Assembly: GCF_030013595.1 (NCBI RefSeq)
Contig: NZ_CP122768.1
Length of the DNA: 64,000 nt
Origin: Escherichia coli
GTDB taxonomy: Bacteria; Pseudomonadota; Gammaproteobacteria; Enterobacterales; Enterobacteriaceae
Strand: one strand, 5' to 3'
The notes under the pieces were generated by a model. The model was not told the DNA's origin. It saw only the letters and a program-made list of their open reading frames with translations, and made no database searches. Positions 41,771 to 43,435 of this stretch are shown in pieces. The position numbers and the translations under genes were made by a program. Every line of letters begins with the position of its first letter. Position 1 is the stretch's first letter.

Positions 41771-42274
41771 ATCAATATCCCTGACATTACTGGTCGCAAG
41801 ATAAGTATATATCACTTTACAAAAATGCAAGCCGTGAGCCCCGAATTCACGACCACCAGCGTGTTTACTGTACTGCACCAGGTTTACAGGTACAAAAAAC
41901 CGCTCGACGGCGGGTTTAAGCTGTGTGGCGAAGTAACCACTCTTAACAGATTAAGATAAAATTTGCGGACCGCGGTAATTTTTTTTGCTAAATTAAAGCC
42001 ATATAAAAAAAGATCCATAAGAAATTATTAGTATACTAAGGTTTAACATGGCTACTATTGCGCAATCAAAGAAACAAAAAAACTTAAAATTGGTTTTTAC
42101 ACCAGCAGTTCTGGGACTATCCGCAGCCATTCAGTTGCTAAGCAAGCAATTGAAAATCTGTATAATACTTGCGTAACCGTTACGAATAATCATTTTGATA
42201 CCATCTATAGAAATAAAAAGTTAAAAATAGCTTTTATAAATAAAGATACAAAAGCTAAATATTTCTTCGGCTAC

Positions 42275-42988
42275 ATGTCATGCTCACGAGAAGAGTATCT
42301 CCTTCCTTATATTGGTGATGAATACTGGAATGAGCACAACATACCACTAGATGATAAAAAATACATAGTCGAAAGAACCTATTTTTTATATTATTACGAT
42401 AGTGATATTTTAATATTAACTCAAAATCATCTTGGGCCGAAAGAATCGGATTTAGCTTATCTGCTTTACAGCCAGAGTGGTAATCCTGGAAATAACTTTT
42501 CATTCCAAGCCATCTGGAAAAAAGAGAGCGTCAAAGAGCTACTTGAAACAGGAAGTACTTTGAGAAGTTGTGATATTGTCCTGGCTGCTCCCAGGAACTT
42601 TGATGCAACAAATTACCAGCTAAATAGTTCATTTTCTAAGGAACTGGTAAATATGATGGTAGGGCTGGGTGGAACACGTCTCAAGTTAAATCTAAGGGGA
42701 CGTGCATCAGGGAGAGTAAAAGTCAAAGGTTATTTATCAGATCTCGTTAAGGATGGTATTAAAGAACTCCTTGAAAAAATGCCGGGAATTGTAAAAAAAG
42801 CGGCAGTAACACAGCCCAAAAATACCGTTGAACAAAGTCTTCTTGATCAGGTACTCATTTCAGAAAAAAACATATATACCGTTAATGGTTATGGCACTGA
42901 TAGTGATGTTCTGCAAGCCATGATTTCTGCTAAAATTGATAACAATGAATACCTTAAGCAATACGATATCAGCAAAAAGAAGGTATAG
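42275..42988 (+). CDS. hypothetical protein (moron); frame stays open upstream to a possible ATG at 42048 across an A7 tract
   Basis: 237-aa ORF from the first in-frame ATG; upstream same-frame sequence is coding-like without a start; ATG at 42048 with AAGG SD is in another frame that joins if the A-run 42076-42082 had 8 A. Confidence 0.5.
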   Translation: MSCSREEYLLPYIGDEYWNEHNIPLDDKKYIVERTYFLYYYDSDILILTQNHLGPKESDLAYLLYSQSGNPGNNFSFQAIWKKESVKELLETGSTLRSCDIVLAAPRNFDATNYQLNSSFSKELVNMMVGLGGTRLKLNLRGRASGRVKVKGYLSDLVKDGIKELLEKMPGIVKKAAVTQPKNTVEQSLLDQVLISEKNIYTVNGYGTDSDVLQAMISAKIDNNEYLKQYDISKKKV

Positions 42989-42991
42989 GAT

Positions 42992-43435
42992 ATGTTATTG
43001 AAATACTTAAGAAACCTGATTGTAAGTGTTTTTTGCACCTTGTTCCTACTGAGGTATATCCCTCAGATGGGGCATGCTGACATACTTACAGCCTCCGGGG
43101 TTATTTCAACTGTATCCGGTATTTTATTTGGTTTTATTTTAGCCACAATATCAATTTTTAGTGCTGCTAGCGAAAACTCAAATGGAATAATAAAAGCATT
43201 AAAAAACAACAACATACTTCAATTTATTATTGTAAATCTATTAACCGCAGGTGCATCTTTAATTACGGCATGCGTTATTGCTTTGATAGCAATGTTTGCC
43301 AATGAAAAGACATTGTTACATGGAGAAAAAATAGAATTTATTTTAATTATCGAATCTTTATCTCTTCTTATCATTTCAGTAATAACTTTTGCCTTTACAT
43401 GGAGAAAAGTAAACTGGATACTCCCCCACATTTAA
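42992..43435 (+). CDS. 4-helix integral membrane protein (moron partner)
   Basis: 147-aa ORF with four hydrophobic segments; AGGA SD; starts 4 nt after the upstream stop; followed by a hairpin/T-run. Confidence 0.6.
   Translation: MLLKYLRNLIVSVFCTLFLLRYIPQMGHADILTASGVISTVSGILFGFILATISIFSAASENSNGIIKALKNNNILQFIIVNLLTAGASLITACVIALIAMFANEKTLLHGEKIEFILIIESLSLLIISVITFAFTWRKVNWILPHI

Follow-up and report, generated by a model that had tools for sequence, protein, structure and literature searches.

Of the known exclusion systems, RexAB is the oldest, although how it works is not settled. In phage lambda, and in a tested pair from Pseudomonas putida, a soluble sensor activates a membrane protein, which results in membrane damage or depolarisation and a stop of growth (PMC12894663). 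In lambda RexA, the globular domain, which has a seven-stranded sheet, is split by an inserted four-stranded dimerisation domain, and RexA-like proteins of actinobacteriophages dimerise and bind DNA non-specifically (PMC11077077). Here we describe a gene pair located at positions 42048–43435 of a 64,000-nt stretch of the Escherichia coli contig NZ_CP122768.1 (hereafter the window; all coordinates are positions in it). By analogy with these systems, we propose with moderate confidence that the pair is a two-gene exclusion (abortive-infection) cargo of the RexAB type, carried by a lambdoid prophage, and that its sensor gene is genuinely frameshifted.

Like lambda RexA/RexB (8TWQ; PF15969/PF15968; phrog_12654 for RexA), the module consists of two adjacent genes of a temperate phage on the same strand. 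In both, the product of the second gene is a membrane protein with four helices and about 145 residues, and the cargo is AT-rich. Two short motifs, basic-x-G-F-Y/F (strand 1) and G-P-x-x-S/x-D-L, recur in the two soluble proteins at corresponding sites. In contrast, identity is only about 13%, neither the Rex Pfam models nor those of PADLOC match, and the soluble protein of the module has an additional Lys-rich N-terminal tail of about 12 residues. Unlike lambda rexAB, the module also lies on the strand opposite to its neighbours, ends in its own bidirectional terminator, and has a slippage-prone A8 tract in its sensor gene, with common A7 null alleles.

Other described pairs differ in host and position. 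RexABpp of the P. putida prophage P1 (PP_5643/PP_5644) lies near a cI-like repressor and was validated experimentally (PMC12894663), whereas the present module is described from sequence and models. Sbash gp30/31, CarolAnn gp44/43 and Butters are pairs of a RexA-like and a membrane protein by which prophages exclude phages (PMC11077077); unlike the module, these actinobacteriophage pairs are BLAST-detectable relatives of RexA and RexB, reside mostly in immunity regions, and act in Gram-positive hosts. RdgC (2OWL) and IML3/CHL4 are stand-alone DNA-binding rings or heterodimers of recombination and centromeres, lack a membrane partner and do not occur as phage cargo. Kiwa (KwaA, and KwaB of DUF4868) is a two-gene defence system that resembles the module: its membrane protein has four helices, and its soluble protein has about 300 residues. 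Its gene order is reversed, the membrane gene coming first. Kiwa was rejected: neither protein of the module had a PADLOC match to it, the Pfam family is DUF6731 and not DUF4868, and no Kiwa protein was among the PDB fold matches. What is new is a divergent RexAB-type module outside the RexA and RexB sequence families, which occupies a new place in the phage genome and has a common null allele generated by slippage.

A frameshifted gene and its full-length form

The module comprises the following features.

42048–42988, + strand: rexA-like gene (DUF6731 family) with a −1 frameshift; codons 1–11 are in the ATG frame, the other 302 codons in the frame open from 42047
42038–42041, + strand: AAGG, Shine-Dalgarno-like, 6 nt 5' of ATG 42048, as read from the sequence
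42048–42176, + strand: 42-codon open reading frame (ORF) of the A7 allele; the first 11 residues are genuine, the rest is an out-of-frame tail, and the stop is at 42174–42176
42076–42082, + strand: A7 tract (A8 in intact alleles) at codons 11–12, from tract-length counts and codon phasing
42275–42988, + strand: 237-residue ORF from the first in-frame ATG, without residues 1–76
42992–43435, + strand: rexB-like gene, 147 residues, four membrane helices, intact; it starts 3 nt past the rexA-like stop

An annotation made from the letters of the window alone (the sequence-only reading) had reported that the frame of ATG 42048, a start codon preceded by a Shine-Dalgarno sequence, ends after 42 codons, that the downstream frame is open from 42047 with its first ATG at 42275, and that one extra A in the A7 run would fuse the two frames. 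These observations hold. The frame from 42047 is open up to the stop at 42986–42988, and ATG, GTG and TTG are all absent from it before 42275. Insertion of one A in the tract gives a 313-residue protein, MATIAQSKKQKKLKIGFYTSSSG..., and this full length is what relatives normally have: the protein equals the annotated WP_015987625.1 and its relatives except for single substitutions, and ATG 42048 is also the start of the 313-residue proteins annotated in A8 genomes. The Prokaryotic Genome Annotation Pipeline calls a soluble protein of 261 residues, starting at an ATC codon, and a partner of 122 residues; both calls are annotation artefacts.

In a profile search, the restored 313-residue form matched phrog_7651 from end to end (E 3.6e-151, residues 2–312 of 313). 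It also matched Pfam DUF6731 (PF20505; E 5.4e-10, residues 34–260), and the RefSeq label of the gene is 'DUF6731 family protein'. The homologue alignment contained 36 sequences including the query, down to 35% identity and mostly 309–321 residues long. Just 3' of the tract, the consensus reads K-K-x-K-x-x-R-V-G-F-F-T-S-S, with R14, G16 and F17 invariant or nearly so across the 36 sequences. A chance arrangement of ORFs is ruled out by the end-to-end match to phrog_7651 together with these conserved residues after the A tract. According to the structural model presented below, a start at Met77 would remove one helix and three complete strands from the RexA-like globular domain, along with most of another strand. 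The 313-residue form is the real gene, and A8 is its intact ancestral state. Beyond DUF6731, no known defence or toxin family was matched in PADLOC, NCBIfam or Pfam, and a search of the accessible literature found no paper mentioning DUF6731.

The soluble protein is modelled with the fold of lambda RexA

An AlphaFold2 (AF2) model of the monomer was built from the 36-sequence alignment, with a mean predicted local distance difference test score (pLDDT) of 78.7. From the N-terminus, it contains seven strands with helices, a four-stranded middle domain with helices, and a C-terminal helix. A split seven-stranded domain, a four-stranded insert and a C-terminal helix that runs back to the globular part, as in RexA, are all present in the model. 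A Foldseek search of PDB placed RexA itself (8TWQ) at the top, with an E value of 2.3e-8. Further matches were RdgC, CHL4, CENP-N, IML3 and 3OH8, all of which except CENP-N are on the published list of RexA relatives. A search of PDB by sequence found nothing for the soluble protein. The model therefore predicts that this protein has the two-domain fold of lambda RexA, and by analogy it would be a DNA-binding dimer. The sequence-only reading had proposed profile and structure searches, and the DUF6731/phrog_7651 match and the RexA fold are what they returned.

A four-helix membrane partner

The partner matched phrog_8552 (E 4.7e-63). The four helices that had been read from its sequence were recovered by hydropathy and in an AF2 model with four long helices and a pLDDT of 89; its length and hydrophobic layout match those of lambda RexB. 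When the profile of the partner family was compared with that of the RexB family, a score of 25.6 (P 0.0015) was obtained, collinear over helix 2 and the next loop. None of 200 segment-preserving shuffles reached this value (mean 13.4, standard deviation 2.6, maximum 23.3), and reversed profiles gave 15.9 and 17.3. On these sequence comparisons, homology between the partner and RexB is probable but unproven. By analogy, the partner would be a four-helix inner-membrane protein equivalent to RexB. Together with the modelled RexA fold, this RexB-like partner supports the earlier guess of a toxin, abortive-infection or exclusion module.

As a side observation, a predicted protein of 2,411 residues (P0061) contains eight stretches resembling the 147-residue partner. 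It could be a tandem array of four-helix units, or an artefact of gene calling.

Two lengths of the A tract

The tract was compared in 42 copies of the module, drawn from RefSeq, NCBI drafts, IMG/VR and metagenomes. A7 was found in 14 copies and A8 in 28, and no other length (A6, A9 or A10) occurred. Six of the assemblies come from a study in which nanopore R9.4.1 reads were polished with medaka only, and which supplies five of the 14 A7 calls (PMC10151945). With these six removed, 36 copies remain, 27 of them A8 and nine A7 (the window and eight others). The deletion therefore breaks the sensor gene in roughly 25–33% of known copies. A7 is distributed over at least six haplotypes, and a single identical haplotype of single-nucleotide polymorphisms (SNPs) holds seven A7 and five A8 copies. 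No A7 copy has further damage in the downstream ORF. As in a contingency locus, the tract lies in the 5' part of the coding sequence, differs in length between close relatives and shifts the frame. A neighbouring intergenic T8 run is variable in only 3 of 40 copies.

The window assembly is clean. Its 11 housekeeping ORFs are intact and free of homopolymer defects, and its three tRNA-Leu genes have the canonical 87 nt, with all C8 tracts correct. Over a 12.6-kb segment of the backbone, for which the best identity to a complete RefSeq E. coli genome is 98.7%, a single indel was found, and it is not in a homopolymer (it is a 1-bp insertion at 12441 relative to strain 144, inside a DinI-like gene at the prophage border). 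The module (1.6 kb) is 100% identical to that of ETEC4090, a strain of the nanopore-only study, whereas the flanks of the window are only 97–99% identical. An error in the window is made less credible by this difference between the two strains and by the clean assembly.

The closest relatives of the window, L033 and L039, both have A8, and are identical to it over 6,444 bp except at the tract. Among the A7 assemblies, L035–L038 and L042 show no second indel across the 1.6-kb module alignment, and three are gapless relative to the window over 4.1–5.4 kb. Three A7 assemblies from outside the nanopore-only study have the SNP 42679C in common, which indicates inheritance of A7, here within one sub-lineage. 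Because the window assembly is clean and A7 travels with linked SNPs, A7 is probably a heritable allele that inactivates or strongly down-tunes the gene. These allele comparisons suggest that it is probably a real −1 allele of a slippage-prone run, which arose at least twice and persists at appreciable frequency. Some of the A7 calls in the nanopore-only assemblies are probably errors. A literature search on the accession numbers of the A7 assemblies found nothing.

The sister allele (62% identity) has an A9 run at the same codons, of unchanged length in all but one of 19 copies (18 A9), whereas the run is missing from more distant alleles. A conserved hypermutable tract was rejected in view of this stability of the sister allele. 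The rexA-like gene contains about seven runs of at least 6 nt, as it is AT- and Lys-rich. Four causes had been offered for the A7 run, namely phase variation, slippage, recent inactivation and sequencing error. The data favour a recurring −1 allele and do not support fast reversible phase variation; error probably accounts for some nanopore-only calls.

A cargo slot between Q and the lysis genes

The following features flank the module.

43434–43457, both strands: bidirectional intrinsic terminator A5-GGGCA-GAAA-TGCCC-T6, separating the convergent rexB-like and Q genes
43459–43836, − strand: Q antiterminator gene (Pfam Phage_antitermQ), convergent with the module
41899–41911, − strand: terminator-like hairpin with a T run, candidate late terminator (tR'), from a terminator scan
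41027–41878, − strand: AraC-family regulator gene, 3' of the candidate late terminator

Gene order and composition agree with the initial description of an AT-rich pair, on the strand opposite to the flanking phage genes, between the AraC-family gene and Q. GC content is 0.31–0.38 in the module versus 0.52–0.59 in the flanking phage genes. RNA folding of the terminator at 43434–43457 gave −13.4 kcal/mol on the + strand (z-score −4.5) and −13.0 kcal/mol on the − strand (z-score −2.5); the stability of the hairpin at 41899–41911, by itself, was not unusual. The AT-rich composition and the dedicated terminator fit a cargo gene pair.

In every relative examined, from 100% down to 38% identity, the rexA-like and rexB-like genes are kept adjacent and on the same strand. 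The pair is present in phage cdtI (orf54/orf53), in phage vB_EcoS-733R5, and in E. coli alleles of 62% and 44% identity. In all of these, and also in prophages of Yersinia and Serratia, the pair faces Q convergently and has the lysis genes on its other side. In Vibrio, it is found beside the integrase of a Vinavirales element and also in a resolvase-bearing island, with no Q gene nearby. A scan of GTDB representative genomes found no copy.

A block of about 110 bp (41900–42010) is 82% identical in many O157/O103-type prophages, where it adjoins the lysis genes. It includes the − strand terminator-like site and appears, from its sequence, to be the late promoter and terminator region, in which case Q and the late promoter would flank the module. 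The block of strain 2015C-3163 has an unrelated cargo cassette on one side and the holin gene on the other. Alleles of 44–100% identity fill the slot with the same set of flanking genes. Such diverged alleles within the same flanks, and other cargo in the same slot, fit exchangeable cargo, and suggest that the Q/late-promoter junction of lambdoid prophages is a cargo hotspot.

Several further observations were made on this region and its relatives. The slot of 2015C-3163 (NZ_CP027219.1; L017 2636–5028) contains, on the opposite strand, genes for a 391-residue 'nucleoid-associated protein' and a 404-residue hypothetical protein. The sister allele (310 and 147 residues; L018 172–1571, L068–L077) is far commoner than that of the window, with 3,379 index blocks for its partner protein in the assembly collection, compared with 379. 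An indel polymorphism at 42005–42013, 5' of the start codon (AAAAAAAG versus AAAAAATAAG), sorts the copies into two groups and shifts the spacing in the presumed promoter region.

The window prophage (12400–56000) appears complete, and is inserted between prfC/dinI-like genes and yjjG. Its block of structural genes (12600–36000, 23.4 kb) aligns in one piece to strain W150 at 98.9%. In related prophages of enterotoxigenic E. coli (ETEC) genomes, the terminase, tail and RusA genes are truncated. Other cargo of the late region includes an annotated lipopolysaccharide core heptose(II)-phosphate phosphatase gene (38392–38967, + strand), a tRNA-Gly(tcc) gene (40535–40609, − strand), which alone was matched in an Rfam scan, and the AraC-family gene, whose called length varies (283 versus 247 residues) and which is split in K_EC180. 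At the left end of a related prophage, ETEC6334 (L014 4512–6411) and ETEC6333 (L015 4512–6339) carry SLATT-domain and reverse-transcriptase genes, a DRT-type defence pair. The reverse-transcriptase gene appears truncated in one of the two through an A8/A7 miscall.

Weighing the explanations

A number of results weigh against a frameshifted exclusion module of the RexAB type. The RexA profiles (PF15969 and that of PADLOC) do not match the soluble protein at E<=1 for PADLOC and E<=10 for Pfam; in a control, the same PADLOC model detected lambda RexA at 9e-110, and the PADLOC RexB model was also strong on lambda RexB. Profile-profile comparison with RexA was not significant (P 0.055) and was confined to a stretch of 53 columns. 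The Pfam and PADLOC models of RexB (PF15968) do not match the partner, and the top 50 AFDB50 fold matches of its model do not include RexB, being uncharacterised four-helix proteins only. Lambda rexAB lies in the immunity region, by cI, whereas the module is flanked by Q and the lysis genes, and a promoter scan 5' of 42048 gave no site reaching the threshold and no convincing promoter. The modelled fold, the architecture, the pairing and the cargo behaviour are shown here; activation, defence, membrane action and DNA binding we infer by analogy. Concerning the tract, the clonal isolates ETEC6333 and ETEC6334 differ over 41.6 kb by five 1-bp indels and no SNPs; the indels include the A tract, a tRNA-Leu C run (C7/C8) and the reverse-transcriptase gene, and about 3 of 10 tracts of at least 8 nt are discordant. 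As this pair differs by indels without SNPs, the A7 calls of the nanopore-only study are unreliable. Once the assemblies of that study are removed, the excess of variation at the tract is suggestive but not significant (p 0.11–0.14).

It is unlikely that the A7 of the window is itself an assembly or base-calling error, in a strain that is truly A8 and has an intact, active rexA-like gene. The share of A7 calls from medaka-only assemblies, the disagreement of the two clones at the tract, and the A8 of the otherwise identical L033 and L039 speak for such an error. Against it stand the absence of any other homopolymer defect in the 11 ORFs and the three C8 tracts of the window, the lack of another module indel in L035–L038 and L042, the co-segregation of A7 with 42679C in three independent assemblies, and the fact that the longer A9 tract of the sister allele was read as A9 nearly throughout. 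If A7 is real, it could also reflect a contingency locus, in which rapid and reversible slippage between A8 and A7 switches exclusion ON and OFF. The homopolymer lies within the first 12 codons, both lengths occur on one SNP haplotype and A7 on several, copies that agree throughout 6.4 kb differ by no indel but this one, and the sister allele retains an A run at the same codons. We nevertheless consider true phase variation quite improbable: no third length has been seen, the sister allele's A9 hardly varies, distant alleles do without the run, the AT- and Lys-richness of the gene alone yields about seven runs of this kind, A7 is inherited with linked SNPs, and the discordant clonal pair is nanopore-only and also discordant at a tRNA gene. 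A run of 8 nt is, moreover, short for a classical bacterial phase-variation tract.

A programmed event is very improbable. Here, the A7 allele would make the full protein by −1 frameshifting or transcriptional slippage, keeping a low ratio of sensor to effector. A canonical X_XXY_YYZ heptamer is present in the right phase, a slip on it gives the A8 protein, and the downstream ORF is undamaged in all A7 copies. However, the heptamer is accompanied neither by a downstream stimulator (z-score about 0) nor by a conserved arrangement, and most copies, as well as all distant homologues, encode the protein directly. In E. coli, A_AAA_AAC is a weak shifter compared with A_AAA_AAG. Finally, the pair might serve the prophage itself rather than act primarily in defence: helped by the membrane protein, the RexA/RdgC-like DNA-binding protein might modulate the lysis-lysogeny switch, late transcription or recombination. 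Lambda RexA reportedly biases the bistable switch without RexB, and its DNA binding is dispensable for exclusion (PMC11077077). RdgC, which has the same fold, modulates RecA, and in Enterobacterales the module is invariably beside Q and the candidate late-promoter region. In contrast, the Vibrio pairs reside in unrelated elements without a nearby Q, the two genes are never separated, and the slot holds alleles of 44–100% identity here and other cargo elsewhere, as expected of exchangeable cargo. The common loss of function by A7 in apparently complete prophages suggests, in addition, that the gene is dispensable for the phage. A role in the prophage's own biology therefore appears doubtful, and we give it little weight.

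Proposed mechanism and state of the window allele

For a cargo module of the RexAB type, the following course is proposed by analogy. An infecting phage would be sensed by the soluble protein, a DNA-binding dimer, which would switch on the RexB-like membrane protein; membrane integrity or potential would then be lost, and the infection would abort. Owing to the deletion from A8 to A7 at codons 11–12, the full-length sensor would not be made in the window strain, or only in trace amounts. Such traces could come from transcriptional slippage, or from a −1 slip on A_AAA_AAC that no stimulator promotes. Read in the ATG frame, the A7 allele has CA A_AAA_AAC, an in-phase −1 slippery heptamer, and a −1 slip on it yields exactly the A8 protein. 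No downstream stimulatory RNA structure was found (z-score −0.1). Any rescue would be basal and not programmed, since such a structure is lacking and most alleles need no shift. Most likely, the window module is OFF or strongly down-tuned, with its rexB-like gene intact. Lambda can express rexB alone from its own promoter, a state that the window resembles.

A wider view has a slim chance of being right. DUF6731 and its partner would form a widespread, unrecognised RexAB-like family at the Q/late-promoter slot, in which the slippery tract sets an ON, trace or OFF dose of the sensor. The dose would depend on DNA slippage between A8 and A7, and on low-level −1 ribosomal or transcriptional slippage on A_AAA_AAC. 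If this is true, lysogens would hedge between a costly suicide immunity and a safe state with the RexB-like protein only.

Significance

The sequence-only reading had presented the module as novel. This holds in weakened form: the module has no homologue among known lysogenic-conversion genes, but is, according to the models, a remote structural member of the RexAB kind. Current defence finders miss the DUF6731 family, and homopolymer frameshifts of nanopore-only assemblies can mimic or mask alleles such as A7. The A8 and A7 alleles, found in otherwise identical prophages, constitute natural isogenic material for the study of the sensor and of the lone membrane protein. For DUF6731, which is common in enterobacterial prophages, the proposed relation to RexAB provides a testable function. 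A second and strongly divergent family, placed elsewhere in the phage genome, would then share the RexAB design.

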